Positions 3,874-42,020 are shown, counted from the first letter of the stretch. The stretch is 64,000 bases of DNA from Patescibacteria group bacterium (GCA_943356485.1 CALRFD010000005.1:32103-96102), one strand, 5' to 3'. The notes: a model not told the origin generated them from the sequence alone. Program-made: numbers and translations.

Positions 3874-3920
3874 TCTACGATTTACCTGTAGATTAAAGTT
3901 CTCTTAAAAAAATAATTAAA

Positions 3921-5528: not shown

Positions 5529-5531
5529 TCA

Positions 5532-9142: not shown

Positions 9143-9143
9143 C

Positions 9144-9665: not shown

Positions 9666-9666
9666 T

Positions 9667-18070: not shown

Positions 18071-19380
18071 TACTGGATCTTTCCTTAAAGAGAAAAATAG
18101 AAGAGGCGCAGTACTATAGTAGTCCAATAAATCAACTATACCATCCTACAGCTTTGTTTGGCGTAGAGTCAAAGGAGATAGTTTACTCCTGGGGAAATTT
18201 AAATCTGACTAAATTTATCCCAATCTTACTTAAAGAGTGGTTTTATTTAATAAAAAAAGACGAATTTTTGGTGATAGATTATATCCCAAATGACATTTGT
18301 AATAGTCAGAAATTAGAAGAATATATGGAGTTTTTATGGAAAGGCAAATATAAGATCATCTATCATGATTTTATTGATGATTATGAATTTAAAAATTTGA
18401 ATGCCGAAAAAATTAAAAACTTCATTTATAAAAAAGAACGTAATGTAAAAAAAGATAAATATTTAAGGTTTATCTGTCAAAAGATTATCTCTTTAAAAAT
18501 TCCAAATGATGAGATTACAAAATGGACTTTTGGAATAATTACTAACGGTAAAAGGGATCATTGGGTGGATAAAATTATTGACTCTATAAAAAAGCAAAAG
18601 ATTCCAAGTTATGAAATTATTGTTTGTGGAAACTATGAAGGAAAAAACGGAATAATCCATATTCCGTTTAATATAAATGATGATAAAGGATGGATCACCC
18701 GGAAGAAAAATTTAATCGTAAAAAGAGCAAAGTTTGAAAATATCTGTATGCTTCATGACAGAATAGTTTTAGGTCTTAATTGGTATAAGGGTATGAAAAA
18801 ATGGGGTAATTGTTTCGAGAATTTAGGCTGTAAACAATTATATGAAGGTATTAGAGTTAATGATTGGATAGCTTCACACTATTTTATCAGGAATAAAAAT
18901 AATGAGAAATTTTCTTTTGAATCTTACCTTGATTATAAAGACTGGTATCCTCAAGTGTGGTTTTTAGGACAATTAAATATCTTTAAAAGAAGTGAAATTG
19001 CCAAAAATAATCTTTGGTGGAATGAAAATCTTTTTTATGGACAGAGAGAAGACTTTGATTTTTCTTTAAAACTATACCAAAAAGGTTTTATACCAAGGCT
19101 TAATATTTTCTCAGAAGTTGAAACATTAACTAATAAATATGTAAATCCTACATTCATTAGTTATAGTTTAACATCCCTTAATCCTAAGATGAAGCTTAAC
19201 AATAAAAATGCTTACTTAAAAGCAGCCACTTACCTGTTATTAAAAATATTGGGTTTGATCGGAATAAGGTTATCTTTTAGCGCACTGGAAAATATCAGAG
19301 GTAAAATATATACTTTTATTCTAATGTTTACCCCAATCAAGTATTCCCACAATAGGGAATGGAAAAAGGTTATAAAATGA
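18067..19380 (+). CDS. Hypothetical protein; C-terminal half possibly a GT-A-like glycosyltransferase domain
   Basis: I recognise no hallmark motif. YEIIVCGNYEG and QREDFDFSLKL are reminiscent of GT-A DxD/acidic motifs. The C-terminus is hydrophobic. It overlaps both neighbours. Confidence 0.35.
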   Translation: MILDLSLKRKIEEAQYYSSPINQLYHPTALFGVESKEIVYSWGNLNLTKFIPILLKEWFYLIKKDEFLVIDYIPNDICNSQKLEEYMEFLWKGKYKIIYHDFIDDYEFKNLNAEKIKNFIYKKERNVKKDKYLRFICQKIISLKIPNDEITKWTFGIITNGKRDHWVDKIIDSIKKQKIPSYEIIVCGNYEGKNGIIHIPFNINDDKGWITRKKNLIVKRAKFENICMLHDRIVLGLNWYKGMKKWGNCFENLGCKQLYEGIRVNDWIASHYFIRNKNNEKFSFESYLDYKDWYPQVWFLGQLNIFKRSEIAKNNLWWNENLFYGQREDFDFSLKLYQKGFIPRLNIFSEVETLTNKYVNPTFISYSLTSLNPKMKLNNKNAYLKAATYLLLKILGLIGIRLSFSALENIRGKIYTFILMFTPIKYSHNREWKKVIK

Positions 19381-21125
19381 TTACTATTGGTTTTTATAAG
19401 GGACATAATGCCACAGCCTGTATTTTGAAGGACGGTAAAATATTAGCTGCTGTTTCTGAAGAGAGATTTAATAGAATTAAGAATGCAGACGTTTTTCCAA
19501 AAGAGGCAATTAACTATTGCTTAAATAAAGCAGGGATAAATGGTAAAGATGTAGATTTATTTGTTAGAATTTACGAGCATCCGGAAGGGTATATTAGCCC
19601 AACAGGAGAGGCTAAAAGCCCAAAATTAGTAGAACTAGTCCTTTTTCCTCTACCCTACTTAAAGAAATTTATTTTTCAATTCCCCCCAGTAGGTTTTTTC
19701 CTTAAAGAGACATATGCTTTTTTTTCAGCTAAAATACTTGCCCCCTTTTATCAAAAAATATTTAAGGAAAATATGGCCAGATTTTTAAATATCAGCAAAG
19801 ATAAAATAATTTTTGCTAACCATCATCTGTGTCACGGCTATGCAGCGTATTTTGGTTTTCTGTCTGAGAGTGAAAGGAAAAAGGATCAGCTTGTCATTAC
19901 TTTAGATGGTGAGGGTGACAATATTTGCGGTACTGTTTGGACAGTGACAGATGGTAAGTGGAAAAAAATTGCCGAAACATCAGGAGGAAATTCTATAGCA
20001 ACTTTTTATGGTTTAATTACCCATTTTTTAGGTATGAAAATGAATGAGCATGAGTATAAGGTAATGGGACTGGCGCCTTACGTCTCTTTGGTAGAAATGG
20101 ATAAGATCTATCCTTTTTTTAAAGATTTGTTTTGGGTTGATGATAATCTTTCTATTCATTCAAAATATCCATCAGGTTCTTATCTATACTACTTTGATAA
20201 AGTCCTAATACATCAGAGATTTGATGGTATAGCTGCCGGCGCACAAGCATTGGCAGAAAATTTGGTGGTTGAATTAATTAGCAAGGCCATAAAGAAAACG
20301 GGGATTAAAAATATTGTGCTTTCCGGTGGCTTTTTTATGAATATTAAAGCCAATAAAAAAATCTCTGAGATAGAGGCTGTTGAAAGCCTGACGATTTGTC
20401 CCTCTTCCGGCGATGAATCTGCGCCTTTTGGGGGAGCCTACTTTGGTTTTGAGAGTTTAGGCGGTAAGAGCTTTCAGGGAATTTCTGATTTATATTTGGG
20501 TCCAGATTACTCGGATGAGGATATTGAAAAAGCGATCAAAGAAGACCCCTCAGTTAAAAAATACAGCATAAAAAAAATTGCTGATATAGAAAAAAAAGTT
20601 GCAACTTTATTAGCTGAAGGAAAAATAGTCGGTCGTTTTAAAGGCAGGATGGAGTGGGGAGCAAGAGCGTTGGGGGATAGATCAATCCTGATGGATCCAA
20701 GCAGAGTTGATTTAAAGCAAGAGTTGAATGAACAAGTAAAATCAAGGGATTTTTGGATGCCTTTTGCGGCAACTATTTTGGATGAATGTCAAAAAGAGTA
20801 CATTATTAATCCTAAAAATATTAAAGCTTTTTATATGGCAATAGGGTTTGATACAACTCCAAAGGGTAAAAAAGAGTTGGCTGCCGCAGTGCACCCCTAT
20901 GATTTTAGCTGCCGCCCTCAAATATTAAGAAAAGAAGATAATCCTGATTATTATAAATTGATTAAGTATTTTAAATCACTGACAGGAATAGGAGCATTGC
21001 TTAATACTTCATTTAATTATCATGGGGAGCCGGTCGTTTGCAGTCCGCAAGATGCTCTGCGTACGTTTGAGGTTACCAACCTAAAGTATTTGGCAATAGG
21101 AAACTATTTAATGTCCAAAAAATGA
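19377..21125 (+). CDS. Carbamoyltransferase (NodU/CmcH family), second copy
   Basis: MITIGFYKGHNATACILKDGKILAAVSEERFNRIKN matches the carbamoyltransferase N-terminus. I placed the start at ATG 19377, an ATGA overlap with the upstream stop at 19378-19380, rather than at 19359. Confidence 0.85.
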   Translation: MITIGFYKGHNATACILKDGKILAAVSEERFNRIKNADVFPKEAINYCLNKAGINGKDVDLFVRIYEHPEGYISPTGEAKSPKLVELVLFPLPYLKKFIFQFPPVGFFLKETYAFFSAKILAPFYQKIFKENMARFLNISKDKIIFANHHLCHGYAAYFGFLSESERKKDQLVITLDGEGDNICGTVWTVTDGKWKKIAETSGGNSIATFYGLITHFLGMKMNEHEYKVMGLAPYVSLVEMDKIYPFFKDLFWVDDNLSIHSKYPSGSYLYYFDKVLIHQRFDGIAAGAQALAENLVVELISKAIKKTGIKNIVLSGGFFMNIKANKKISEIEAVESLTICPSSGDESAPFGGAYFGFESLGGKSFQGISDLYLGPDYSDEDIEKAIKEDPSVKKYSIKKIADIEKKVATLLAEGKIVGRFKGRMEWGARALGDRSILMDPSRVDLKQELNEQVKSRDFWMPFAATILDECQKEYIINPKNIKAFYMAIGFDTTPKGKKELAAAVHPYDFSCRPQILRKEDNPDYYKLIKYFKSLTGIGALLNTSFNYHGEPVVCSPQDALRTFEVTNLKYLAIGNYLMSKK

Positions 21126-26415: not shown

Positions 26416-26572
26416 CTGTTGTAGTTAAATTTTCATTTACCAAAAAATTAAGTTCAAAATTGGGGATTTAATTTTTCTGTAAAATGATATATTAATAGAT
26501 CTGCTTAAATTATGAAGTGTATTCCAATAAAGCTTCACTATATAATACAGCGGGAAGATTTGGTTTCATTTA

Positions 26573-28810
26573 ATGAAAGATAAAAAATTAGTATCAGTAG
26601 TTATCGTAAGCAGGGATCGGAAGAAAGATCTTACAGAGTGTATTGAATCTTATCTTAACTCCTCATACAAAAATATTGAGGTTATTGTTGTTGATAATGC
26701 TTCCAGGCAGCCAATTTCAGATTGGGTTAGAAAGAAGTACCCTAAAGTAAAAATCATCACCAGTGATAGTAATTTAGGGGCAGCAGAAGGTAGGAATATG
26801 GGTCTTGATGTATCAAAAGGAGACTATATTATTTTCACTGATGATGATGCTTATGCTGATAAAAATATGACAAGGTATTTAGTGGAGGCTTTTGAAAAAA
26901 AGAATGATGCAGGAATTATTCAGCCCTTAGTTTACGACAAACAGGAAAAGAGTACTTTGCAAGGAGCCGGCCATGATATAGATTTGACAACAGGTAGAAT
27001 CAAAGCATGGGGGGTAAAAGAGGAAGATCAGGGTCAATATGAAGGGTTGCGGGAAGTACCGATGTGTGGTTGTGTTTGGATGGTAAAGAGGGAGGTTTTT
27101 AATAAAATTGGCGATTATGATAAGGAGTACTTTATTCCTTATGAGGATTCTGATTTTTCCATTAGGGCAAGGAAAGCAGGTTATAAACTTTATTGTTATT
27201 CACTGGCCAAAAGTTGGCATCAGGGAGTAAAGAAAACCTATATACACCCCTGGATTGAGTGGTTAGGTATCACCTCTTCGATCAGGGCGTATAGAGTAGC
27301 CAGAAATAAAATAATTTTTATGGCAAAGCATTCAGAGTATCCTTCAAATGTCCTTTTTTTTAGCATATTCCTGCCTATCTATATAATTTCGCATTCTTTA
27401 ATAATCATAGCTGCAGGTAAATTTCAGCTATTAAGCTATTATTTAAAAGGAGTTTTTTCGGGTTTAACATATCTGCTTAAAAAGATTTTTAATAGTTTGA
27501 CTTTATTAATTTTAGCCTGGAGTGATCCTCTACCCTGGGTAATTGATAGATCAGCCAAAAGTATATTGGACATAGGTTGTGGGGAAGGTCTGCCTATGAG
27601 GTTAATTAAAAAAAGGATGAAGGTGGAGAGCTCAACAGGGGTTGATTTATTTGAGCCTTATATTAAAAAAGCAAGAAATATACAAACTCACGGCAGTTAC
27701 GAGTTACAGGATATAAGAAAATTAAACTATGGTAGAGAGTCCTTTGATGTTGTAATCGCCTCTCATGTTTTAGAACATTTACCTAAAGAAGAAGCTTTAA
27801 TGGTATTAGAGAAATTAGAGCGGATTGCAAAGAAACAAATTATCATAGCAGCTCCTATTGGTGAAATGTATCATCCGGAGGTGGATGGTAATAAGTTACA
27901 GCTGCATTTATCTGAATTTGAACCGGAAGAATTCGAAAAACGTAATTACCGGATAATAAGATACGGGTGGAAATGGTTGTTGGGCGAGAAAGGTTTAATT
28001 AATAAATATCCTAATATTTTTATTCGAAAGTTAATTTTTATCATCCATTTATTATCAACCCCCCTATTTTACATATTTACTGATATTGGAACATATACCT
28101 TTGTGGCATATAAAACAAAGCCCAAAAAGGAAAATCATGACTTGTTAGTAGATAAACCCAGTAGGCTAAAAATATTTTTAATGTCTCTAACAGATCCTCT
28201 TCCACATGTTGTCGATAAAACTGCCAGGTCAATCTTGGATTTAGGTAGTGGTCAGGGAAAGCCCATGGCAATGATTAAATTTTGGAGAAAGATTGAAAAA
28301 GCAGTTGGAGTAGAGTTATACAGACCTTATATCGACCAGGCTAAACAGCTAGGCTTATATGATCAGTATCTACTTGAGGATGTCAGAAAAATAAATTTTC
28401 CGCCTAAATCTTTTGATATTGTGATGGCCTCTCACGTTTTAGAACATTTATCTCAAAAAGAGGGCTGGGTACTGCTTTCCAGGATGGAGAAAATTGCCAA
28501 AAAACAGGTTATTATTGCAACTCCAATTGGAGAAATTTATCAGCCTATGTTTGATAAGAATATATTACAAGAACATAAGTCTTATTTTTTGCCGGAGCAA
28601 TTTATCAAACGTGGTTATAAAGTTATTAAATATGGAGCAAGATGGATTTTGGATGAACATTCCAATAGTCTAGTATATCAAGCTAGAAACCCTTATTTGA
28701 AAAAATTAGTCTATATCTTTAATTATTTGATTACTCCGCTTTATTACTTTTTTCCGGAGATCTGTGATTATTCATTTGTTGCCTACAAAAATATGACAGA
28801 TGAAAGTTAA
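26573..28810 (+). CDS. Trifunctional fusion: GT2 glycosyltransferase + membrane segment + two tandem class I SAM-methyltransferase domains
   Basis: The N-terminus has the GT2 signature VSVVIVSRDRKKDL...VIVVDNASRQ. Mid-protein TM helices follow. Two repeated units each carry DPLP(W/H)V(I/V)D(R/K)(S/T)A(K/R)SILD(I/L)G(C/S)G(E/Q)G motif I and ASHVLEHL...IAKKQ(I/V)IIA(A/T)PIGE. Confidence 0.75.
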   Translation: MKDKKLVSVVIVSRDRKKDLTECIESYLNSSYKNIEVIVVDNASRQPISDWVRKKYPKVKIITSDSNLGAAEGRNMGLDVSKGDYIIFTDDDAYADKNMTRYLVEAFEKKNDAGIIQPLVYDKQEKSTLQGAGHDIDLTTGRIKAWGVKEEDQGQYEGLREVPMCGCVWMVKREVFNKIGDYDKEYFIPYEDSDFSIRARKAGYKLYCYSLAKSWHQGVKKTYIHPWIEWLGITSSIRAYRVARNKIIFMAKHSEYPSNVLFFSIFLPIYIISHSLIIIAAGKFQLLSYYLKGVFSGLTYLLKKIFNSLTLLILAWSDPLPWVIDRSAKSILDIGCGEGLPMRLIKKRMKVESSTGVDLFEPYIKKARNIQTHGSYELQDIRKLNYGRESFDVVIASHVLEHLPKEEALMVLEKLERIAKKQIIIAAPIGEMYHPEVDGNKLQLHLSEFEPEEFEKRNYRIIRYGWKWLLGEKGLINKYPNIFIRKLIFIIHLLSTPLFYIFTDIGTYTFVAYKTKPKKENHDLLVDKPSRLKIFLMSLTDPLPHVVDKTARSILDLGSGQGKPMAMIKFWRKIEKAVGVELYRPYIDQAKQLGLYDQYLLEDVRKINFPPKSFDIVMASHVLEHLSQKEGWVLLSRMEKIAKKQVIIATPIGEIYQPMFDKNILQEHKSYFLPEQFIKRGYKVIKYGARWILDEHSNSLVYQARNPYLKKLVYIFNYLITPLYYFFPEICDYSFVAYKNMTDES

Positions 28811-31800
28811 AGGTTTAATACCAATATTCCTGATATTTATACTGTCCACAGTTCTTATATTCACCTGGTTTCAAGAAGGGTATATGTATGGAGGCGGCGA
28901 CGTGGGTTTACCTTCATATGATCCAGCCCGTACCCTGGAAAAATCAGAGCATATTTGGTGGGAGGCTTCTGCTCCCGGTACAACAGTTCCACAAGGTTTG
29001 ACCTCTGTTCCTTTTCAGGTTTTACAGTCTTTTTTGCACAATATCGGTTTATCACCGGTGATGATACAGGCTTTTGTCTTCTGGAGCCTGCTCTTTTTGA
29101 TGGGTATTGGGATGTATTTTTTAGCCTTAGGGGTGTTTGAAGAAAACTTTCTTTTGGCAACAGTAGCAGCATTATTTTATATGTTCAATCCATATATGAT
29201 GATTCAAATTTGGCACAGATTTATTCATAATACAATCTTTTTGGCTGCTGTTCTTCCCTTTATATATATTTTCTGGAAAAGTTGGATTAAAACAGGTAAT
29301 TATACAAAATTATTTTTATACATACTGACAAATTTGCTGGGGGTTTATCTTTTCGGAACAATTGCTTTTATTGCCACAATTTTTATTTTAATAAGTTTTA
29401 TTTCCCTGATTGAAATCTTATTTCCCTGGCAAGGTTGGAAAAAATTTCGGATGGTTTCTAAGAGATCTATTCTAGGTATAATATTTTGGTCTTTAGCTAA
29501 TATTTGGTGGTTGTGGCCGGTATTAACGATTGCACCGGCCAGCTTATCCTTGCAGCACTCAATTGGAGAAAGCTTAGGCACCCTGCTTGCAATCAGCAGA
29601 CAAGCCATAATACCCTACAGCCTTTTAGGTATAAATTCCTTTTATCTTTATGATAAGGCGGATTGGGGGGATATATATAATAACTACTTTTTCAGGATCT
29701 TGCCCTGGCTGTCTTTATTTTTTTTAATTCCAGGTTTTATTAAAGGTTTAACAAATAGAAATTGGTTATCCTGGTCGTTACTTTTAATCTTAGGGTTATT
29801 TTTAGCCAAGGGCGCGGCAGCCCCTTTTGGTTATATCTATATTTGGGGGTTTAATCATTTTTTTGCTTTGGGAGCTTTAAGAAATCCTTTTGAAAAATTG
29901 GGTATTTTATTGCCTTTTTCTTCCGCTATTTTAATAACAATAGGTATTGATTGGTATTTAGCTAAGTTTAAGAGTCGATTGAAGATAATGATTAGGACAG
30001 GGATTTGTTTAATAATGGTACTGCTTTTGATAGTTAATCTTTGGCCAATGTGGCTTGGAAAAATATTCGGTACCCTGGAAAAACCCGGTTTTGTGGAAGT
30101 ACCTTCAGTCTATAAAGCGGCGGATAATTTCATAAAAAATCAGAGTAAAGACGGTAAAATTTTACACCTGCCACTCACAAGCGGTGAATCTATTACTTAT
30201 AACTGGCCACATGGTTATCATGGCGTTGAACCTTCTCAATTACTTTTTAAATCATTGCCCTCTGTCTCCCATGGATTCAATATTAATCCGGTTGATGATA
30301 GCTTAAATGCGCTGTCTTATATTTTCTTATTATCGGATTCTGAGGATAAGATAATTTCTATTCTGCAGTCATTTAATATTAAGTTTATTGTTTTACATAA
30401 AGATATAGAATGGCATGGAGGAGATTTAGAAGATCCTCAAAAGCTGGAAAAGCGCTTGGATGAATTTGATTTTCTTGAAAATAAAACTCAATTTGGAGAT
30501 TTGATTGTTTATAGATTGAAAGATATGTATTTTTATTCCAGGCTTAGGCTAACTAATAACATTTCCTATTTTATTTCATCTGAAAATAATATTTATTGGC
30601 CATGGTTACTCTCTTCTAATAAATCAGATCTAATTTCATCTCTGCAAAAAAAGAAAGACGATCTACTTATTAAACTTGGAACCGAAATGATTATTCCTCC
30701 CGACCATGTTTATAAATATAGTCCTCAAAAGATCGTTAAAGAAAATATAATAGGGGAAATGCCGGCTGCTAAAGTTTTACCGGACTCCCCCCTCTATCTC
30801 TTTATAAGAATTAAAGAGATGGTTCAATATTTTAGTCTACCCATTAATGATAAATTTTCTTTTAAGCTAACTTTAGCTGGTAAGAGATTAGTAGAGAGTT
30901 ATCTGATTAAAGAAAAAAAATCATCTTTATTAATTACTCCTCAACTTCAAGAATATCAACGAATCTTGACAGAAATTAGGGATGGGGTTTATGCACGGAG
31001 TAATGGAGATGAAGGGAGTAAGGAACTTTCTATTAATTTTATATTATCTCATCATTTAACCACTTTAGAACTTATTAAACAAAAGACTGTCGGTAAAGAG
31101 ATGAAGATAGTTGAATCAACCATAACGCAGTTAACTAATTTAATGAAAGAGGCAAATATTACTCCCTACAACCAACTCATTGAGAGAGAAAATTTACCCT
31201 CTGTTGGCAGATTAATTTCCAAATTTAACCTGCCTATTTCCGGCAAATATGAACTACTTCAGGCTAATGAACAAAGCCAGGGTATTTATCCAAATGGATT
31301 AGGGACTAATGATTTTCAGATTAATAATACGGTTTCGAACTTAAATGGAAAAGCTGCAGGAAATTTTATCTCCTTTGGGACGGTTAATTTAGAGGAAGGA
31401 TTAAGTGAAATAAGCTTTAATTCGATTCCATCTATAGATTTATCTACAATTAACAGAACTTCCAGAAAAGGGGATGTTAAGGAGTCGGGTGATGGAATTG
31501 AAGTAACCTCCAGTGAACACGATTCAAGTTATGTTGACTTAAATATCGATCCGATTCACGGCGGTAATTGGTATCAGCTTAGCTTTGATGCCTGGTTTAA
31601 ACTGGGGGATACCTTCAAGATACAAATAATGCAGGACACAGATCCTTATGACTCTGAAAAACCGGGTGAAAAGATACCCTCCTATGACAATGATTTTCAT
31701 AGGGATGCTTATATAAATGACTGGAATAATAACGTATTTAATTTCTATGTTAATCCGACTACGAGTAAAGTTGTAATTAGATTCCTGGTTATACCCTGGG

Positions 31801-32285
31801 ATGGCTGCAAATACTTTCTGATCTCAAAGACAGTCTGTTCCAATAAATTAGTTAAATACATTTATGAGAAATCCAGTAAGATCTCCTTTCGGAATATCAG
31901 TGTAATTAGGCCTTTAAGCAATCCTATTTTTCTAAAATCAGAAACTGCTTTCGCTCCTCAAAAAAATGAAGGTACGGTTAAATACACTCAAAATAGTGTT
32001 ACTTCATATTCGGGAAGTATAAGCCTAAGCTCTCCGGCCTTCTTAATATTTAGTGAGACATATCATCCGGGCTGGAAGTTGGAGCTTTTTAATCCAGATA
32101 AGTCTACAGTTTTGCAAAGATTTGTAGCTAATAATTATAGTAATGCCTGGTACATCGACCATCCTGGAAATTATACTTTTAAGCTTGAATTTACTCCTGA
32201 GAGGAAAGTAATTGTTGGTTTAATAATTAGCGGCTTAAGCATTTTGGGTTTACTAATTATTGTTATTAAGAAAATAAGACCATGA
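28800..32285 (+). CDS. Giant polytopic membrane protein (1161 aa), GT-C-like N-terminal domain + large extracytoplasmic domain + C-terminal TM anchor (YfhO/AftD-like architecture)
   Basis: Conserved motifs are GGGDVGLPSYDP, IWWEASAPGT, NPYMMIQIWHRF, RNPFEKLG and KILHLPLT. The C-terminus carries SETYHPGWKL...NAWYI...LEF-P followed by a TM helix. It overlaps the upstream fusion gene by 11 bp. Confidence 0.5.
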   Translation: MKVKGLIPIFLIFILSTVLIFTWFQEGYMYGGGDVGLPSYDPARTLEKSEHIWWEASAPGTTVPQGLTSVPFQVLQSFLHNIGLSPVMIQAFVFWSLLFLMGIGMYFLALGVFEENFLLATVAALFYMFNPYMMIQIWHRFIHNTIFLAAVLPFIYIFWKSWIKTGNYTKLFLYILTNLLGVYLFGTIAFIATIFILISFISLIEILFPWQGWKKFRMVSKRSILGIIFWSLANIWWLWPVLTIAPASLSLQHSIGESLGTLLAISRQAIIPYSLLGINSFYLYDKADWGDIYNNYFFRILPWLSLFFLIPGFIKGLTNRNWLSWSLLLILGLFLAKGAAAPFGYIYIWGFNHFFALGALRNPFEKLGILLPFSSAILITIGIDWYLAKFKSRLKIMIRTGICLIMVLLLIVNLWPMWLGKIFGTLEKPGFVEVPSVYKAADNFIKNQSKDGKILHLPLTSGESITYNWPHGYHGVEPSQLLFKSLPSVSHGFNINPVDDSLNALSYIFLLSDSEDKIISILQSFNIKFIVLHKDIEWHGGDLEDPQKLEKRLDEFDFLENKTQFGDLIVYRLKDMYFYSRLRLTNNISYFISSENNIYWPWLLSSNKSDLISSLQKKKDDLLIKLGTEMIIPPDHVYKYSPQKIVKENIIGEMPAAKVLPDSPLYLFIRIKEMVQYFSLPINDKFSFKLTLAGKRLVESYLIKEKKSSLLITPQLQEYQRILTEIRDGVYARSNGDEGSKELSINFILSHHLTTLELIKQKTVGKEMKIVESTITQLTNLMKEANITPYNQLIERENLPSVGRLISKFNLPISGKYELLQANEQSQGIYPNGLGTNDFQINNTVSNLNGKAAGNFISFGTVNLEEGLSEISFNSIPSIDLSTINRTSRKGDVKESGDGIEVTSSEHDSSYVDLNIDPIHGGNWYQLSFDAWFKLGDTFKIQIMQDTDPYDSEKPGEKIPSYDNDFHRDAYINDWNNNVFNFYVNPTTSKVVIRFLVIPWDGCKYFLISKTVCSNKLVKYIYEKSSKISFRNISVIRPLSNPIFLKSETAFAPQKNEGTVKYTQNSVTSYSGSISLSSPAFLIFSETYHPGWKLELFNPDKSTVLQRFVANNYSNAWYIDHPGNYTFKLEFTPERKVIVGLIISGLSILGLLIIVIKKIRP

Positions 32286-32638
32286 TTATAAATCTTAAAA
32301 AAAATCGTGATACGCTAATTAAAATACTAATTCAATTTATTTTTATCTTTCCAGTGATTTTTTTCTTAAATGCAGGTTCGCTAACAGATACATATTGGAA
32401 AGTTGCCCAATCAGTTATTTTAACCGTTGTATTTATCGCTGGATTAAGCCGGCCACAGCTAAAAAAGAATATTTTTTTATTGGGTTTATATTTAATTATC
32501 ATAATGGTGATCCTGTATGTGTTTGGTTTAGTTGATTCAGCTGATTTAGCAGGAAGTAGCGGAGTAGGAATAATAACGATGAATCTATTAACCTATCTTC
32601 CTGAATTAATAAACTTGGGTTATATTAAGAAGATATAA
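32282..32638 (+). CDS. Small 3-4 TM membrane protein, partner of the upstream giant membrane protein
   Basis: It is 118 aa and hydrophobic. It is a paralog of 36084..36413, sharing the tail LTYLPELINLGYIKK versus LSYLPDLVRIGFVKDK. There is a 4-bp overlap with the upstream gene. Confidence 0.45.
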   Translation: MIINLKKNRDTLIKILIQFIFIFPVIFFLNAGSLTDTYWKVAQSVILTVVFIAGLSRPQLKKNIFLLGLYLIIIMVILYVFGLVDSADLAGSSGVGIITMNLLTYLPELINLGYIKKI

Positions 32639-32646
32639 TCTAAGTA

Positions 32647-35600
32647 ATGAAATCTATAAACATTTTTAAAAATAATTTTCCTCAGTTTTTTATTTTTTTG
32701 TTAGTTAGCCTTTTTTTAACCATAAGCTGGTTTAGATCTGGATATATTTATGGTGGAGGCGATGTGGGTCTGCAGGTATATAACCCAATTAGGATTCTGG
32801 AACTTGTATCTTATATCTGGTGGGAGGCTACAGGACCTGGTTCTCCTACGCCACAGGGTTTAACTGCCCTTCCATTCAATTATTTTTTTTCCGGCTTAAA
32901 ATTAATAGGTTTTAGTCCTCTGATGCTTCAGTCAACTCTTTTTTTTCTGATTCTTTTTGCAATGGGTACAGGGATGTATCTGCTTATATTATTTCTCTTT
33001 AATGAAAATCATAAGAAGTATGCACTCTTGGCCGGTTTATTTTACATTTTTAACCCATATATGATGATTCAGGTATGGCATAGGTTTGTTCATAGTACAT
33101 TTTTTATTTCCGCAGCGTTGCCGTTCTTAATGATTTATTGGTTAAAGTGGGTTAGAAACAGAAAACCCCAATCGCTTTTGATATTTCTAATAATTAATTT
33201 AATATCTTTATATGGTTTTGGGACGATCGCCTATATTTTAACTCTTTGGTCTTTTCTCCTACTGATTACAATTCCTGAAATTATCTTCCCTTGGGGTGGA
33301 TTAAAAAATGCGAGGAGAGTATCACTTTTATTTTTTGTTGGGTTTTTGTTCTGGATTTTGACTAATATATGGTGGCTATTACCAATTTTTAAAATTGCTC
33401 CAAGCTTTCTATCAGAGCAGCACAGCAACGAGCAGACGCTAGCTACTATTTATACGCTAGGGTATCAAACGGTCTTGCCTTACTCCTTGCAAATGATTAA
33501 CCCTTTTTATCTCTTTTCCCAGCTGGATTTTGGCAGTAGCTATCTGCATATTTTTTTGCGCATTATCCCCTGGATTTTTGTGGCAGTTATTTTTGTAGGA
33601 ATTATAAAAGGGTTATTTAATCCAAAAAGCGCAAAATGGTCTATAGTCTATCTTTTAGTCTTAGTTCTTTCAAAAGGGGTAGCATCTCCCTTTGGATATT
33701 TTTATGTTTTAGGAATGAAGTATTTTTTTCCATTGGGAGTTTTAAGAAATCCGTTTGAGAAAATGGGGGTTTTATTGCCTGTAGTCAGCTCGATTGTATT
33801 AGTTATAGGTACGAAGATAATCTTCGATTTTTTTAAAGTAAAAACAAATATTAAATTGGCTAATTTGGTGCTACTTACAGCCTTTGGCTTAATTTTTTCT
33901 TTTTGCTGGCCAATGTTTACCGGACAAATTTTTGGTAAGTTTGATAAGCCGGAGTTTGTGGATGTGCCAAAAAGTTATAGTGAAGCTGATCAATGGATAA
34001 AAGCAGATTACTCTTCAGACTTGCATCAAAACCCCGGTAAAATTTTACACCTGCCTTTAACTAAGGGAGAAAGTATTGACTATAGCTGGGAGCATGGTTA
34101 TAGCGGCCTTGAATCAAGCGCCTTGTTTTTTACCAGCGCTCCTTCTATCTCTCATGGTTTTAATTTAGCACAGGTAGATAATGCCCTAACTTCGCTTTAC
34201 CAGGCTTTTCATAAAAGTTTTGTAAGTCCGGATACAATATTAAGGCTTTTAAACGATTTTAATGTTAAATACATAGTTCTACATAAAGATGTAAAATTGC
34301 AGGGTGGAGAATTTTATGATCCAAAACAAACTGAGGAAAAACTAAACAGCTTAGAGTATCTTACACCACCCAAAAGATTTGGTGATCTGGTTATTTATAA
34401 AATTTCTGATAAATTTTTCAGGCCAAAAATTAGTTTAACAAATAAATTTGTTTTACTCTCTCCTCCGGATAATCCTAGTCTTTGGCCTTGGATTTTAGCA
34501 GGTGATAGAACTTTGATTACAGATTTAAGTAAAAATGGGGAGATAGAGAAAGCCTCTAACGCATTTATTTTTCCCAAAAAATCTTTTTCTTATGAAGAGG
34601 CTTCTCCCTCTTCAGCAATAAGTTTAATCAACCAGCTTCTTATAAACCCTAACTACGATAATTTATGGCTTAGTTCTTTGCTTAATCTTAAAACAATTTA
34701 TCGGGCAAATAATGAAATACAGGGAGAACAGTTAAATGATAAGCTAATATCAGCTTCAAAAAAGATTTTGAAAATTGCCAGATCTATCTTTGTTGATAAT
34801 AAAATCTTTTCCTTGTCTGAATTAGATGATTATGCGGAGGAGATGAAACAGATTCTTTCTTCCAACTCAGCGGTGCTTTCCTTTTATGCTAAAGACAAAA
34901 CTATATCAAATATTTTCCAGGTTCATTTATATCTGCTTAAGGCTATAGCTAAAAAAACTCCGGTAGGTGGAAATAGCGCTGCAAGAGCTGCAGATGATTT
35001 GAAGAAAAATTTAGTATCAAATAATTTTATCTCTGAAAATTATGCAGAAGGTGAGATTCCCGTTTTGTTTGAAAAAACAGTTTTAAAGTTTGAAATACCG
35101 AAAGACTCAAATTACGAACTTTTGCTGACTCATTCCAGTAAAGAGAATTTATATCAGGAGAGATATGAAAAAATGGTAGTGCTGGTTGATGGAAAATTAA
35201 ATAATCTCACCCTTAACAAAAAGGAGAATGTTACTTCTTTAGGCGTATTCTTCTTAAGTAAAGGGACTCATGAAATAGATCTGCCAATACGATATTCAGA
35301 TAATTTGCTTTCTAACAAACAGGAAGATGTAAAAATAGAATCAATTAAGGATAAGTTGGGTTATTTTGAAGATAAGATAAGCTATGTTACAGGTCAAGAC
35401 CGCTACAAGGTAAGTTTTAGTGCAAAGGTTGAGAAAGGAAGTGGGTTTTATATTCAACTGGTGCAGGATACGGATAGTAGGGGGTCAAATAACCAAGTTA
35501 ATTATCAGGTAAATGAGTTTATAAGCCAACCATCCGGTCAGGATTTTAGGGATTATAGTTTTCCTCTTCCTGATTTAAGGTTAACCACTAAAGATGCTGC

Positions 35601-36075
35601 AGTAAGATTTTTAGCATCCTCTCCCGATGGCGGAAATCTGGTTTCTTCTTCTATGCTAATCAGAAATCTGCAGGTTAGAAGGTTTTCTGATGAGGAAGTC
35701 TTCCTGCAGGATTTTGGGAAAACCGAACCGGATATGCCATCATCCGGTCACATTTCGATAAACCAAAAAACACCTACCTTTTATGAAGGACGGATACAAA
35801 TAAGTGAACCGGCATTTGTTATTTTTAGTGAGAGCTATCATCCTGGTTGGAAATTAAGTTTGCAAAAAGAAAATAAGGAATATATTTCTAATACTCATTT
35901 TCTGGCTAATTTGTATGCTAATGCCTGGTATATAAATGAAGCAGGTAATTATAACTTTAAGCTTGAGTTTGAACCTCAGAATATAGTTAATTATGGATTT
36001 ATTATAGCTATAATAAGTTATATAGCATTAGTGTTGTATTCCCTAATTGTTAGCTTTAAAAAAGAGAAAGTATAA
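32647..36075 (+). CDS. Giant polytopic membrane protein (1142 aa), paralog of 28800..32285
   Basis: It shares the same motif set (GGGDVGLQVYNP, IWWEATGPGS, NPYMMIQVWHRF, RNPFEKMG, KILHLPLT, SESYHPGWKL...NAWYI) and a C-terminal TM helix. Confidence 0.5.
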   Translation: MKSINIFKNNFPQFFIFLLVSLFLTISWFRSGYIYGGGDVGLQVYNPIRILELVSYIWWEATGPGSPTPQGLTALPFNYFFSGLKLIGFSPLMLQSTLFFLILFAMGTGMYLLILFLFNENHKKYALLAGLFYIFNPYMMIQVWHRFVHSTFFISAALPFLMIYWLKWVRNRKPQSLLIFLIINLISLYGFGTIAYILTLWSFLLLITIPEIIFPWGGLKNARRVSLLFFVGFLFWILTNIWWLLPIFKIAPSFLSEQHSNEQTLATIYTLGYQTVLPYSLQMINPFYLFSQLDFGSSYLHIFLRIIPWIFVAVIFVGIIKGLFNPKSAKWSIVYLLVLVLSKGVASPFGYFYVLGMKYFFPLGVLRNPFEKMGVLLPVVSSIVLVIGTKIIFDFFKVKTNIKLANLVLLTAFGLIFSFCWPMFTGQIFGKFDKPEFVDVPKSYSEADQWIKADYSSDLHQNPGKILHLPLTKGESIDYSWEHGYSGLESSALFFTSAPSISHGFNLAQVDNALTSLYQAFHKSFVSPDTILRLLNDFNVKYIVLHKDVKLQGGEFYDPKQTEEKLNSLEYLTPPKRFGDLVIYKISDKFFRPKISLTNKFVLLSPPDNPSLWPWILAGDRTLITDLSKNGEIEKASNAFIFPKKSFSYEEASPSSAISLINQLLINPNYDNLWLSSLLNLKTIYRANNEIQGEQLNDKLISASKKILKIARSIFVDNKIFSLSELDDYAEEMKQILSSNSAVLSFYAKDKTISNIFQVHLYLLKAIAKKTPVGGNSAARAADDLKKNLVSNNFISENYAEGEIPVLFEKTVLKFEIPKDSNYELLLTHSSKENLYQERYEKMVVLVDGKLNNLTLNKKENVTSLGVFFLSKGTHEIDLPIRYSDNLLSNKQEDVKIESIKDKLGYFEDKISYVTGQDRYKVSFSAKVEKGSGFYIQLVQDTDSRGSNNQVNYQVNEFISQPSGQDFRDYSFPLPDLRLTTKDAAVRFLASSPDGGNLVSSSMLIRNLQVRRFSDEEVFLQDFGKTEPDMPSSGHISINQKTPTFYEGRIQISEPAFVIFSESYHPGWKLSLQKENKEYISNTHFLANLYANAWYINEAGNYNFKLEFEPQNIVNYGFIIAIISYIALVLYSLIVSFKKEKV

Positions 36076-36570: not shown

Positions 36571-39252
36571 ATGAATAAGTTTACCTTGGTTTTTATTTTT
36601 ATATTTGCTATTTTGTTTTGGGTTTTCTGGCTGCCTGGCCCCAGGGTTGCAACAGATTATTATTTAAGCACAAGCGAAATAGTTAAAGATTATACTTTTC
36701 CTTGGGGCTGGAGGGAGAATTCATCAGATGGATTAGGGACGTATACAGTCGGAACTTTATGGTCTCAACCGATACATCTTTTATCAAGAATTCTGCTGGA
36801 GCTTAATATATCTGTTGTTTGGATTACCAAGATTTTACTCATATTATTTCTAGCGGCAGGATTTTTTTCTATAAAAAGGCTACTGGGTTATCTGCAAATA
36901 AAGGGAATGGCAAAATATACAGGGGTTTTATTTTATTTACTTAACACGTATTTCTTGCTTTTGATAGATGGGGGACAGCTTTCTTTAGCCTTTGTGTATT
37001 GTTTAGTTCCTCTTTGTATATATTTTTATCTTAAGACAATGAGTGAGCAGAGCACTAAGAATAGATTAAATTTTATAGCCTCCCTTCTTACGGTTTCATT
37101 TTTAGATATAAGGTTTGTTTTTTTATTATTTTTAATCTTTTTTATTCACATTTTATTCAGTATGGCAAAAACTACTAAAAACACAAAATTAAAATTATTT
37201 AAAAATATTTTCATAACGGGAATATTAACAGTAATATTTTTAATCCTCGCCCATATATATTGGATTTTACCAACATTTTTTTCGCATAGCATTCAATTAC
37301 CTCAAACATATGAAAGAAGCTCGCAGGTAGATTTTTTAAGTTGGTCTTCCTTAGCCCATTCTTTATTTATGCAGCAGCCTCATTGGTACAAGAATATATT
37401 CGGAAATATTTCTAATGTAGGATTAGAGTTTTCAATGATTCCAATATTAGTATTTTTAACGATTATATTAAAAAGAAAGGATAAGGTTGTTGGGTTTTGG
37501 TTAATCATAGCCATTCTAGGAATATTTTTGAGTAAAGGTTCGAAAGAGCCATTCGGAGGGATTTACACTTGGGCATTTACTAATATTCCGGGGTTTTCTT
37601 TATTCAGAGATCCGGTTAAGTTTTATCTGCTAACAGCCCTTTCTTATAGCATCTTAATATCTATTTCAATAAGTGAGATTTCAAAGTTTGATACCAGCAA
37701 AAAATTTATTAATCGGCTTGTCAAACTTATCCCAATTCTTACATTAGTATATTTAATCCTGTTAGCTTGGCCGCTTTATTTTAAGCAGATGACAGGAATG
37801 TTTTCTGAACCAAGTTATGAACAGGAGTTTTTTCAACAGTCGGAAATCTTATCCAAGGACTTCGGCTTTTCCAGAATAGTTTGGATACCAGTTCAGAAAC
37901 CTCTTGGTTTTGCCAGCACCAACCATCCTTCAATCGGGGCGATAAGATTATCCCAAAAGCGGCCGTTTGAGGTAGGTATAACAGGTACCTATGAAACGCT
38001 TAATTTTTTAAGAGATACACCTTTTATGGGAGAGATTTTTGATATTGCAGGTATTGGTTATATTAATTATCCCTATCTTGATGTTAAAAGGGATGAGATG
38101 AGTTTTGATAATAGAAAATACTTTTATACATTTTTAAATCAGCTATCGAAACTTTCCTGGCTTGAAAAAGTACCAGAGTCAAAAATCCCTCTTTTTAAAA
38201 CTACCCATCATCAAGATAGATTTTTTATTGCGCCAAATGTTTGGTGGGTAATAGGGTCAGATAAAATTTATAATGAAGCAACTAAGAGTTCCAATCTAAA
38301 ACTTGCTAACAATGCTTTGATTTTCTCAGAAGAGTACTCAGGGTTAGGGGCGGAAATTAGTAATCTGCCAAATGTAAAGATTATCCTGCAAAATAAAACA
38401 GCCATTGACCTTGCAGCTTCATTTATACAGAAAACTTTAATTTTTCCAGCAAAGCAATTAAAGTTTGATCCGGATCTAAATTCCGGATGGTGGAAAAGGG
38501 AGGCCTCAGATTTGATTAATTGGAGGGATTTTTTGCAGTCTAAGTACGGTATTAATAACCAGGATTTTGATTTAGGCGGAGGATGGGCGGTTGGCGAAGG
38601 AAATAAACAGTTGAAAATTGAAGTTTCCAAAAAAGGAAAAGAGTCTTTGAGAGAAGGAAATGTTTTATTAGCTAGGGTAATGGAGAGCACCAGAAGCGGT
38701 TCATTAAGCTTTTATCAGGATGATCAGTTAATAGGAACTCTAAATACTGAAAAAGAAGGCAATAATATCAGGTGGTTTGAAATAGGCCAGTTACGTAAAT
38801 CAGACGGACAACTGAGGATTCTATCGTTTGGGGATATTAATGTAGTTAATGCCTTAGCAATTTTAGACGCTAAAGACTGGCAGGTATTAAAAAATAAAGC
38901 TGTTTTGCTTAAGGGTAGGATTATGGATTTTAATGAAATGAATGCAAGCAGTTCTGGCGTTCCTAAAATTTCTTACCAGAAAATAAATCCGACTAAATAT
39001 GTTGTTAATATTAATGGTTTAACAAAAAGCTCTCTTTTAATATTTTCCCAAAATTACGACAGATCCTGGAAAATTAATAATCAGGAACCGCTACCTATAT
39101 ATAGTTTGCTAAACGGATTTGCTGTAAATACAGATGGCCGCTATGTTATCGAATTTGAACCTCAAAAATATATTAATTTAGGGTTAATTATTTCTATATT
39201 CACAATGAGTATCCTGATTCTTCTCATAATTAAATACAGCAAACAACGGTGA
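36571..39252 (+). CDS. Large polytopic membrane protein (893 aa), divergent member of the giant GT-C-like family
   Basis: It has the same architecture: an N-terminal multi-TM domain, a soluble domain and a C-terminal TM helix. Related motifs are FSLFRDPVKF (compare RNPFEKLG) and the C-terminal FSQNYDRSWKI...EFEPQ (compare SETYHPGWKL...LEFTPE). Confidence 0.45.
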   Translation: MNKFTLVFIFIFAILFWVFWLPGPRVATDYYLSTSEIVKDYTFPWGWRENSSDGLGTYTVGTLWSQPIHLLSRILLELNISVVWITKILLILFLAAGFFSIKRLLGYLQIKGMAKYTGVLFYLLNTYFLLLIDGGQLSLAFVYCLVPLCIYFYLKTMSEQSTKNRLNFIASLLTVSFLDIRFVFLLFLIFFIHILFSMAKTTKNTKLKLFKNIFITGILTVIFLILAHIYWILPTFFSHSIQLPQTYERSSQVDFLSWSSLAHSLFMQQPHWYKNIFGNISNVGLEFSMIPILVFLTIILKRKDKVVGFWLIIAILGIFLSKGSKEPFGGIYTWAFTNIPGFSLFRDPVKFYLLTALSYSILISISISEISKFDTSKKFINRLVKLIPILTLVYLILLAWPLYFKQMTGMFSEPSYEQEFFQQSEILSKDFGFSRIVWIPVQKPLGFASTNHPSIGAIRLSQKRPFEVGITGTYETLNFLRDTPFMGEIFDIAGIGYINYPYLDVKRDEMSFDNRKYFYTFLNQLSKLSWLEKVPESKIPLFKTTHHQDRFFIAPNVWWVIGSDKIYNEATKSSNLKLANNALIFSEEYSGLGAEISNLPNVKIILQNKTAIDLAASFIQKTLIFPAKQLKFDPDLNSGWWKREASDLINWRDFLQSKYGINNQDFDLGGGWAVGEGNKQLKIEVSKKGKESLREGNVLLARVMESTRSGSLSFYQDDQLIGTLNTEKEGNNIRWFEIGQLRKSDGQLRILSFGDINVVNALAILDAKDWQVLKNKAVLLKGRIMDFNEMNASSSGVPKISYQKINPTKYVVNINGLTKSSLLIFSQNYDRSWKINNQEPLPIYSLLNGFAVNTDGRYVIEFEPQKYINLGLIISIFTMSILILLIIKYSKQR

Positions 39253-41348: not shown

Positions 41349-42020
41349 TTGGAATCAATGAGTCAAGCTGTTTGGTATAACAGATGGGTTGAAGGGCAAT
41401 TTTATAAATATCTTTCCGGGAATATCCTAGAAGTCGGTTGTGGTATAGCTAACTTTAGTCAATATCTGTCTAAATATGGAAAATTAACCGCGATAGATAT
41501 AAATAGAGAATATATAAAGCAGGCAAAAAAGAAAGCGGGTATAGATGTAAGAGTAGGATTTGGGGATATTGAGAATGGCCAATATTTTTTTAAAGAACGA
41601 AATTTCAATACTGTTGTTTGTATCAATGTCCTGGAACATATAAATAATGATAAAAAGGCTCTAAAAAATATTGCGGAGTTGTTATTACCAAAAGGCTATT
41701 TGGTTTTGCTTGTCCCGGCTGGTAAATTTCTCTATAATCTAATAGATAGGTCAATCGGTCATTTCCGGCGTTACGAAAAAAATGAACTTTTGCTGCAGTT
41801 AGAGGAAGCAGATTTTGAGATAGTTAAATCAAAAAGGCTAAACTTCTTAGGGGCTTTGGGTTGGTTTATTTCCGGTAGGGTATTTAAAGACAGTAGTGTT
41901 GGTGAAGGGAAGATTAGAATATTTAATTTAATTGCCCCCTTATTTTTAAAGATTGAAAGTATAATTGAGCCGCCCGTTGGGACTTCAATATTAATCATAG
42001 CCAGAAAGAAAGAGAAATGA
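41349..42020 (+). CDS. Class I SAM-dependent methyltransferase
   Basis: It carries motif I ILEVGCGIANFS and NVLEHI...LLPKGYLVL. Confidence 0.75.
   Translation: MESMSQAVWYNRWVEGQFYKYLSGNILEVGCGIANFSQYLSKYGKLTAIDINREYIKQAKKKAGIDVRVGFGDIENGQYFFKERNFNTVVCINVLEHINNDKKALKNIAELLLPKGYLVLLVPAGKFLYNLIDRSIGHFRRYEKNELLLQLEEADFEIVKSKRLNFLGALGWFISGRVFKDSSVGEGKIRIFNLIAPLFLKIESIIEPPVGTSILIIARKKEK

Follow-up and report, generated by a model that had tools for sequence, protein, structure and literature searches.

A glycosyltransferase joined to two methyltransferase domains of separate lineages in a Patescibacteria glycan island

A 745-residue protein with one glycosyltransferase and two methyltransferase domains

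In 64,000 nucleotides of DNA from a Patescibacteria group bacterium (GCA_943356485.1 CALRFD010000005.1:32103-96102; henceforth the window, meaning the whole stretch analysed), we studied a gene whose product joins a family 2 glycosyltransferase (GT2) to two domains resembling S-adenosylmethionine (SAM)-dependent methyltransferases (MTs). The gene is an open reading frame (ORF) that starts with ATG and encodes 745 amino acids (aa) with no interruption (Table 1). A first-pass annotation, made from the sequence alone, had described a single ORF comprising a GT2 domain, a hydrophobic anchor and two MT domains, and this description is borne out by the ORF list and by Pfam, which places the GT2 domain and both MT stretches above the family cut-offs. 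Glycos_transf_2 (PF00535) scores 99 bits over aa 8-179 (E 3.7e-28; cut-off 23.3), which makes the domain a member of PF00535. Two stretches match Methyltransf_11 (93.5 bits, cut-off 21.2; E 1.3e-26), the first of them at aa 332-421. Methyltransf_25, Methyltransf_23 and Methyltransf_12 likewise match both stretches, and Rsm22 spans aa 548-648, inside the second. All the sequence motifs quoted in the first-pass annotation are located in the protein, and the 11-bp overlap that it reported with the giant gene downstream is present, the 1161-aa ORF starting at 28800.

Table 1. The fused gene, its parts and selected neighbours, in positions counted from the first letter of the window
Feature	Position	Strand	Evidence
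Fused GT2/hairpin/MT1/linker/MT2 gene, 745 aa	26573..28810	+	ORF list, Pfam
GT2 domain (GT-A fold), aa 1-255	26573..27337	+	PF00535, AlphaFold2, Foldseek, invariant columns
Hydrophobic helical hairpin, aa 258-280 and 284-317	27344..27523	+	AlphaFold2 helices, hydropathy
MT1, aa 319-515, class I SAM methyltransferase of the R1 lineage	27527..28117	+	Methyltransf_11, bootstrap clade
MT1 hydrophobic helix pair, aa 482-501, before the last strand	28016..28075	+	AlphaFold2, hydropathy
Linker between the MT domains (fusion junction), aa 516-530	28118..28162	+	Alignment to L001, junctions of split relatives
MT2, aa 531-745, class I SAM methyltransferase of the R2 lineage	28163..28807	+	Identity to standalone MTs, AlphaFold2
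MT2 hydrophobic helix, aa 707-726, counterpart of the MT1 insertion	28691..28750	+	AlphaFold2 (model residues 177-196), alignment
GT2 of the same subtype, 300 aa, with the same C-terminal hydrophobic helices	25513..26415	+	Pfam, NCBIfam
AftD-like GT-C, 1161 aa	28800..32285	+	PF11847, E 1.4e-7, 30.3 bits against a cut-off of 26
Small multi-transmembrane protein, 118 aa, between two giant GT-C genes	32282..32638	+	ORF

The two MT domains, MT1 and MT2, are clear repeats of each other, as had been proposed. In an alignment of 211 aa (E 1e-75), 47% of their residues are identical and 73% positive; the motifs follow in the same order and the hydrophobic tail is shared. A tblastn search of the window with each repeat returned only the other repeat at that level. 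Each has the hallmarks of a Rossmann-like class I enzyme: motif I reads ILDIGCGEG in MT1 and ILDLGSGQG in MT2, followed by the acidic residues D358 and E581, respectively. Both retain LD.G.G.G, the acidic residue after strand 2, D.R, S.D.V, EH, P.G and D.N..Q.H. All family-invariant residues are kept in both domains, and judging from these motifs both look catalytically competent. Fixed signatures set apart the two lineages to which the domains belong, with YHP, LQLH and LLGE in R1 (MT1) and YQP, LQEH and LLDEHS in R2 (MT2), differences that would fit distinct regio- or substrate specificities.

The first-pass annotation had also raised the possibility that a frameshift or sequencing error joins what are really separate genes. 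The identical protein in NCBI is entry P0001. A second protein, P0002, is an uninterrupted 745-aa orthologue with 85% identity, encoded in the same gene order at locus L001 of an independent assembly (Logan SRR22388239); an orthologue of the same length without interruption argues that the ORF is one gene. It is true that the two genes of split relatives lie only a few bases from one another and differ in frame, so that a single indel could mimic a fusion. However, two independent assemblies both give the uninterrupted ORF of 745 aa, with linkers that are equal in length and differ in sequence, and a merger of two genes by sequencing or assembly is therefore extremely improbable. Comparison of the window gene with the L001 gene by the Nei-Gojobori method, across many synonymous differences (dS about 1.4), gave dN/dS values of 0.059 for GT2, 0.048 for the MT1 core, 0.029 for the MT2 core and 0.025 for the MT2 tail (0.057 for the whole gene). 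Such low values indicate strong purifying selection on all three domains, which suggests that all three are functional. The linker at aa 516-530 is only 40% identical between the two genomes (pN 0.39), yet is in frame and of the same length in both, as expected of a free spacer.

Origin of the fusion and distribution of related architectures

Because MT1 and MT2 are homologous, with 47% identity, collinear motifs and a shared hydrophobic tail, a recent tandem duplication of the MT domain within the gene would seem a natural origin, and the first-pass annotation had indeed called the pair an internal domain duplication. This interpretation fails on the phylogeny, since each half is closer to MTs of other genomes than to its partner. 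BLAST of the separate pieces showed that the MTs of P0007, P0008, P0010 and P0011 are 60-69% identical to MT1 and 46-50% to MT2, while those of P0003-P0006 and P0009 are 62-68% identical to MT2 and 47-50% to MT1. In neighbour-joining trees with 200 bootstraps, the R1 clade and the R2 clade were each recovered in 200 of 200 replicates and MT1 and MT2 as sisters in none, so that the two domains represent two orthologous lineages. A search with MT2 alone retrieved standalone MTs (P0121-P0129, 206-237 aa, 59-71% identity), and one of these, P0121, is the nearest neighbour of the window MT2 in the tree. With MT2 also a separate gene in syntenic relatives, as described below, a recent duplication has a vanishingly small probability.

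Syntenic relatives carry the two parts as neighbouring genes. In L004 the order is GT2-MT (516 aa), MT and AftD-like GT-C; L008 has the same core order, as does L007 (= L010), which is collinear with the window and reads GT-C, GT1, GT2, GT2-MT (518 aa), MT (237 aa), GT-C, small protein and GT-C. The standalone MT of L004 is 63% identical to MT2 over its entire length and 53% identical to MT1. Genes of this MT2 type, about 210-240 aa long (206-237 aa among those listed), lie between the GT2-MT gene and the AftD-like GT-C gene in the syntenic relatives. Since MT2 is a separate gene there, we conclude that the 745-aa protein is a fusion of two adjacent genes. The direction of change follows from the distribution of the fused state, which is confined to the window and L001 and nested among split relatives, and is thus derived.

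The junction itself retains traces of the two genes. In the split genomes, the first gene ends 2-7 residues past a conserved FVAYK, and the second begins between 47 nt before and 5 nt after the stop codon of the first, in another frame. At this point the window and L001 have a variable in-frame linker in place of the stop and second start, and the window linker, KKENHDLLVDKPSRLKIFLM, resembles the N-terminal extension of the standalone MTs, MKHNHRHEFEKDSQSKFKLFLM in L007. The fusion thus arose when a GT2-MT(R1) gene lost its stop codon and, with a change of frame, ran into the adjacent downstream MT(R2) gene, the short overlap or 5-nt gap between the ancestral genes giving rise to a free linker of roughly 15 aa. 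We regard the anatomy and the origin of the protein, taken jointly, as very probably correct.

The R2 lineage has a more tangled history. Clades that would unite R2 domains with standalone MTs only were recovered in 0 of 200 replicates and were discarded, as standalone and GT2-fused MTs are interleaved throughout this lineage; P0006, an MT fused to a GT2, is for example sister to the standalone P0124. This interleaving points to repeated fusion, fission, domain loss and recruitment within the module. Genomes in which the GT2 is fused to an R2-type MT often have a third, divergent MT (30-33% identity) just upstream, as in L002 at 9349-10011.

To place the fusion among known proteins, we used a word-indexed search of 5.8 billion cluster representatives, which gave 295 matches; what follows concerns the 120 that were listed. 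At least 118 of these consist of a GT2 and one MT, are 451-556 aa long (nearly all 500-556 aa) and cover 57-70% of the query at 50-66% identity, and the named entries are called 'glycosyltransferase' and come from Patescibacteria or Candidatus Daviesbacteria. A length of 745 aa is found in the query and P0002 only. An exhaustive HMMER search of 1.84 billion representatives returned 164,460 matches at E <= 1e-3, and the best 150 were typed by BLAST against the three pieces of the protein. None of the 150 had the order GT-MT-MT. Twelve were GT-MT and nine were MT-GT-GT or MT-GT-GT-GT; MT-MT (P0171), MT-GT-MT (P0211), MT-MT-GT-GT (P0218) and GT-MT-GT occurred once each, and the remainder were single GT2s or multi-GT proteins, the key cases being confirmed by Pfam. 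In species representatives of GTDB, GT2-MT occurs by itself, behind a divergent MT or ahead of a standalone MT; in others the GT2 and one MT, or the GT2 and two MTs, are fully split into separate genes, or the GT2 is fused to a polytopic membrane domain. The earlier remark that GT-MT-MT fusions are unusual thus holds for the complete GT2-MT-MT arrangement, while the fusion of a GT2 to a single MT is common in Patescibacteria. We conclude that GT2-MT-MT is a rare arrangement of a common Patescibacteria glycan module, and that the window gene is a real, selected and lineage-specific fusion of two adjacent genes from this widespread and uncharacterised module. In the literature, we found no specific account of Patescibacteria AftD-like systems or of a GT2-MT-MT fusion.

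The polytopic partner of the GT2, with at least 10 transmembrane segments and no known family, occurs in P0154-P0157 (879-899 aa), in L024 at 3576-6245 and in L025 at 3948-6662. The GT2 parts of P0154-P0157 show 51-64% identity and belong to the same subfamily, and the polytopic domain is weakly similar to the window ORF at 3921-5528 and to a 611-aa protein of L001. Many contigs (L010, L011, L015, L020, L021 and others) have an operon of the Patescibacteria type under record titles reading 'uncultured Gammaproteobacteria', and these organism labels look unreliable.

Predicted structure, proposed activity and alternatives

MAFFT distributes the single-MT homologues over MT1 (N-terminal half) and MT2 (C-terminal half), which would create false co-evolution, and AlphaFold2 modelling of the whole protein was rejected for this reason. 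We therefore modelled aa 1-522 (75 family sequences) and aa 531-745 (32 sequences) separately. The first model has a mean confidence (pLDDT) of 92.7 and a predicted TM-score (pTM) of 0.86, with low pLDDT at the model end, near the linker. It places the strands of a GT-A domain between aa 7 and 216, helices at aa 236-253, 258-280 and 284-317 (the second and third make up a hairpin, with a turn of 3 residues), and a Rossmann MT domain from aa 330-429 onward whose last strand lies at aa 509-515. Ahead of this strand, two hydrophobic helices (aa 482-494 and 496-501) are inserted into MT1. The MT2 model (pLDDT 93.5) has the same elements as MT1, and the hydrophobic insert is kept in fused and standalone MTs of the family.

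The first-pass annotation had counted two or three hydrophobic helices after the GT2 domain. The model has two long ones, of which only the first is strongly hydrophobic: the Kyte-Doolittle peak over aa 259-284 is 2.25, strongly transmembrane-like, compared with a weaker 1.81 over aa 487-505 in the MT1 insert. In P0154-P0157 the same GT2 subfamily is joined through the hairpin region to polytopic domains of at least 10 transmembrane segments, which supports a true membrane anchor. As both the nucleotide sugar and SAM are cytoplasmic, the hairpin would have to return the chain to the cytoplasmic side, and it is probably a membrane anchor that holds the GT and MT domains on this same side. The hydrophobic helix pair of MT1 is possibly an element that dips into the membrane or acts as a lid over the substrate.

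A central question is which kind of glycosyltransferase the GT2 domain represents. AlphaFold2 and Foldseek agree on a GT-A fold with the DXD motif that binds metal and nucleotide sugar. D90-D91-D92 (DXD), E191-D192-x-D194 and H216 are invariant in the family alignment of 75 sequences, and the E-D-x-D acid cluster and C-terminal His are typical of GT-A enzymes with hydroxyl acceptors, such as GlfT2, ppGalNAc-T and beta4GalT; the invariant residues would fit a metal-dependent GT-A enzyme that uses a catalytic acid on a hydroxyl acceptor. Foldseek against the PDB ranked ppGalNAc-T, GlfT2 and TarP at the top, GT-A enzymes matching at E about 1e-14. Only ppGalNAc-Ts gave a profile match to the PDB that starts at positions 7/8 of the GT-A domain and extends to about 185-208; GlfT2 aligns over profile positions 61-219, E-D-x-D region included, whereas DPMS (5mlz) matches only the generic N-terminal half (positions 4-115). 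No profile match to a solved structure entered the hairpin region, position 219 being the furthest reached.

Among NCBIfam models, the GT part resembles the rhamnosyltransferase family TIGR01556, MftF, EpsD, AglG, PgaC, HpsN, GlfT1, PglI and WcaA. TIGR01556 aligns at full length (aa 25-297 on model positions 12-281) with 87 bits, below its cut-off of 200.55, and MftF scores 71 bits (8.7e-20) against a cut-off of 280, which does not make the domain a member of that equivalog. No NCBIfam family of polyprenyl-phosphate sugar synthases matched the GT part at E <= 1e-6, placing it outside that clade, while two GT2s of the window used as controls, at 42017-42715 and 45362-46084(-), match AglJ, ArnC, PpgS, PgfS and a Dol-P-hexose transferase. 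Based on the invariant DXD, E-D-x-D and His residues and on these profile and fold matches, we prefer a glycan-extending role over one like that of GtrB. The analogy to GtrB-type synthases drawn by the first-pass annotation rests on the C-terminal hairpin and is otherwise unsupported, as the GT-A domain groups with glycan-extending GT2s by both sequence and fold. The layout found here by AlphaFold2 and hydropathy, in which a transmembrane hairpin lies C-terminal to the GT-A domain, recurs in the paralogous 300-aa GT2 of the window, and hairpin-bearing GT2s can serve roles other than polyprenyl-phosphate sugar synthesis.

The MT domains are less informative about their substrate. Foldseek neighbours of MT2 are generic class I small-molecule MTs with TM-scores of 0.55-0.65, which do not identify a substrate, and include phosphoethanolamine N-methyltransferases (some of them tandem di-domain proteins), LahSB, TleD, RebM and AtmM. 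The best NCBIfam match of the MT part is the sugar 2-O-methyltransferase MftM, at 1.9e-19 and 70.1 bits, below the cut-off of 200.

Taking these data together, we consider the protein best explained as a fused trifunctional enzyme of surface-glycan synthesis, with a probability of about 0.6. Its biochemical role, predicted from sequence and put by us at roughly even odds, would be to extend a lipid-linked glycan by a sugar and then to perform two methylations, as an enzyme anchored in the membrane and facing the cytoplasm; the earlier proposal that the protein adds a sugar and methylates twice still appears to be the best functional reading. At the inner membrane face, the GT2 domain would take a sugar from a nucleotide sugar and attach it to a hydroxyl group of a glycan intermediate bound to lipid. 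MT1 and MT2, kept at the membrane surface by their hydrophobic helix inserts, would then methylate two different positions, either on the added sugar or on residues next to it. Flipping of the product could follow, with further handling by the AftD-like GT-C of the overlapping downstream gene. The fusion would set a 1:1:1 stoichiometry and hold the three domains in proximity, where relatives would use one fused and one free MT.

Several observations weigh against this interpretation. All NCBIfam matches lie far under the curated cut-offs, so that sugar specificity is unreadable from them, and the generic fold neighbours of the MT domains are a mixture of N-, C- and O-methyltransferases. The separate AlphaFold2 models give no arrangement of MT1 relative to MT2. 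The GT2 part grouped with R1-type relatives in 0 of 200 replicates and with R2-type relatives in 0 of 200, falling instead with main-family proteins, and recombination or rate shifts may have shaped its history. The remaining points concern the layout of the protein and of its neighbourhood. GtrB-type enzymes consist of a GT-A domain, juxtamembrane helices and a C-terminal two-helix hairpin, and the window protein shares this layout; moreover, overlapping pairs of GT2 and GT-C genes recur in the window (for example 21122-22195/22192-24333 and 42017-42715/42712-44223). By this alternative route, the GT2 would make a polyprenyl-phosphate monosaccharide that the MTs methylate in the cytoplasm, flipping would perhaps be performed by the 118-aa protein, and the AftD-like GT-C would move the pre-methylated sugar to an extracytoplasmic glycan. 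The conserved overlapping GT-C gene downstream and the conserved small multi-transmembrane gene after it agree with such a route, and hydrophobic MT inserts would suit a lipid-linked substrate. However, the GT part lacks the synthase-family similarity at E <= 1e-6 that two other GT2s of the window show, DPMS aligns to its generic N-terminal half only, and the invariant E-D-x-D and C-terminal His are those of the hydroxyl-acceptor GT-A type, so that we find this route unlikely. A variant joins GT2-MT-MT, the AftD-like GT-C and the small membrane protein in a new three-component system, in which a sugar linked to lipid by a GT2 not of the DPMS type would be di-methylated on its carrier in the cytoplasm, flipped and transferred, already decorated, to the surface of an ultrasmall Patescibacteria cell; we offer it as a speculative and distinctly doubtful proposal.

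Two further alternatives concern the MT domains, and we judge each of them improbable. Many class I MTs work as dimers, and one MT could be catalytic with the other acting as a scaffold or activating partner in an obligate pseudo-heterodimer, the fusion then tethering the partner. The fused and the standalone MT are always adjacent in split genomes and an independent tandem MT-MT fusion exists (P0171), which would suit this arrangement, but motif I and all family-invariant polar residues (EH, D.N..Q.H) are present in both domains, purifying selection is equally strong on both MTs, and most family members have a single MT without a partner. Alternatively, methylation might target something other than hydroxyls, in successive N-methylations of an amino sugar or a phosphoethanolamine-type substituent. 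Phosphoethanolamine N-methyltransferases, including the tandem ones of plants and nematodes, are among the top fold neighbours of MT2, and two DegT-type aminotransferases encoded in the window indicate that amino sugars are made. Nevertheless, the likeness is one of generic class I fold (12-18% identity, TM-score about 0.6), the sugar O-methyltransferases RebM and AtmM score similarly, and the best NCBIfam match, below its cut-off, is MftM; no phosphoethanolamine transferase was detected in the window.

Known systems and the surrounding glycan island

The nearest relatives of the fused protein are the GT2-single-MT proteins of Patescibacteria (about 515-545 aa), which share 50-66% identity over aa 1-520 and have the same hairpin, MT insert and operon position. 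They differ in having one MT, with the second, if any, encoded by a separate adjacent gene, where the window protein and P0002 have both fused. In this respect the fusion is a "Rosetta stone" provided by nature: it would imply that the GT2-MT and the free MT of relatives act together on one substrate with two methylation specificities. It also predicts that the envelope glycan of these bacteria contains a sugar methylated twice, and a single polypeptide is convenient for biochemistry. Apart from this, the protein adds a further permutation to a very modular class of enzymes, and its general significance is modest.

The combination of GT and MT domains on one polypeptide in a glycan cluster places the protein in the functional class, not the sequence family, of WsaE and A064R. 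In PBCV-1, A064R (GT-GT-MT) adds a terminal sugar and methylates O-2, and A061L, a separate MT of roughly 209 aa, methylates O-3 only after the first methylation (PMC9614988). The logic of A064R and A061L matches that of the split form, in which one MT is fused and the other free; the window protein would then be the fully fused version of this form. A064R is nonetheless described as soluble, with two GT domains and the second MT unfused, and the likeness is one of function, not of sequence family. WsaE of Geobacillus stearothermophilus combines an MT with two rhamnosyltransferase domains and 2-O-methylates the rhamnose that it helps to build (PMC2943079). It resembles the window protein in being a multidomain GT/MT enzyme whose substrate is a lipid-linked glycan, as predicted here, and the MT-GT-GT order also occurs among relatives of the query; unlike the window protein it has another domain order, a single MT, a soluble form and an ABC-transporter pathway in which the methyl cap ends the chain.

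The first-pass annotation had named WbdD-type terminators as the closest analogy. ORF6 of Klebsiella O7, which we count among the better functional parallels, unites MT-kinase and GT modules in one protein (PMC3482155; PMC11231755), and it shares with WbdD of E. coli O8/O9a and with the window protein the coupling of SAM-dependent methylation to polysaccharide assembly. However, WbdD-type terminators have a kinase, a coiled-coil ruler and a Wzm/Wzt exporter, which the window protein and its island lack: Pfam detected neither kinase nor coiled coil in the protein, the AlphaFold2 models have GT-A, hairpin and MT folds only, and the 64-kb window, in its ORFs of 150 aa or longer, encodes no ABC transporter but a Wzx-type flippase, a Wzy_C protein and a Bac_transf protein. 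We therefore replaced WbdD with WsaE, A064R plus A061L, MftF/MftM and the di-domain phosphoethanolamine MTs as closer comparisons.

MftF and MftM are the top or second NCBIfam matches of the GT and MT parts, respectively. Both act on one sugar chain, MftF as a GT2 and MftM as a class I MT, and they differ from the window protein in being separate proteins with a small-molecule cofactor as acceptor and no membrane anchor. The di-domain phosphoethanolamine N-methyltransferases (plant PMT1/2, nematode PMT) have tandem class I MTs in one chain, between which successive methylations are divided; they differ in substrate, are soluble, have no GT domain and are similar at the level of fold only. GtrB, DPMS and ArnC share the GT-A domain with a C-terminal membrane hairpin and the position next to a GT-C gene, but without family-level sequence similarity, the C-terminal half of the window GT-A domain being of the GlfT2/ppGalNAc-T type.

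Genomes of Patescibacteria (Candidate Phyla Radiation, CPR) are tiny, yet at least 64 kb is devoted here to surface-glycan synthesis, the whole window being a glycan-biosynthesis island in a genome of roughly 33% GC. The island encodes RmlD, nucleotidyltransferases, a UDP-sugar dehydrogenase, dehydratases, the two DegT aminotransferases, hexapeptide acyltransferases, two carbamoyltransferases and at least three further MTs, for at least five MT domains in all. It also encodes about ten GT2s, seven GT1/GT4s, three AftD-like GT-Cs and five PMT_2-like GT-Cs, together with the Wzx-type flippase, the Wzy_C protein and the Bac_transf initiating transferase. This content predicts a surface glycan heavily decorated with methyl, carbamoyl, acyl and amino groups.

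The immediate neighbours of the fused gene are conserved (Table 1). An AftD-like GT-C gene directly follows the MT gene wherever the order is readable (L001, L002, L004, L005, L007 and L008). The 300-aa GT2 upstream is 33% identical to the GT part, has a similar NCBIfam profile and is syntenic in L001, L002, L005 and L007. For the 118-aa multi-transmembrane protein no Pfam family was found, and counterparts of 109-120 aa exist in L001 (15716-16072), L002, L004, L005 (15137-15469), L007 (12153-12515) and L008; it could be a flippase or an accessory subunit of the GT-C. In relatives, a second small multi-transmembrane protein follows the next GT-C.

The GT-Cs at 28800-32285 and 32647-36075 are paralogous tandem AftD-like proteins of 1161 and 1142 aa, both with a large extracytoplasmic C-terminal region and a C-terminal transmembrane helix, and a 713-aa AftD-like GT-C lies further along. 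The organisms that carry these proteins lack the known decaprenyl-phospho-arabinose pathway. A protein of 893 aa at 36571-39252 matched no family and holds the position of a gene of ~890 aa in related loci. The DPMS/ArnC/AglJ-type GT2 at 42017-42715 overlaps a PMT_2-type GT-C at 42712-44223; this pair and the GT2 at 45362-46084(-) look like the classical type of polyprenyl-phosphate donor plus GT-C, separate from the GT2-MT-MT/AftD-like pair.

In the window, a spacer of 157 bp (26416-26572) precedes the fused gene. At this position L001 carries two extra genes (7577-9909), whose products are a polytopic membrane protein of 611 aa and a protein of 166 aa, and L005 one gene of 765 aa (7638-9935), and the window lineage has apparently lost the membrane protein gene. 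The NodU/CmcH-type carbamoyltransferase genes are at 2170-3873 and 19359-21125; the second heads the syntenic block in L001 and L005, and its conservation suggests O-carbamoylated sugars.

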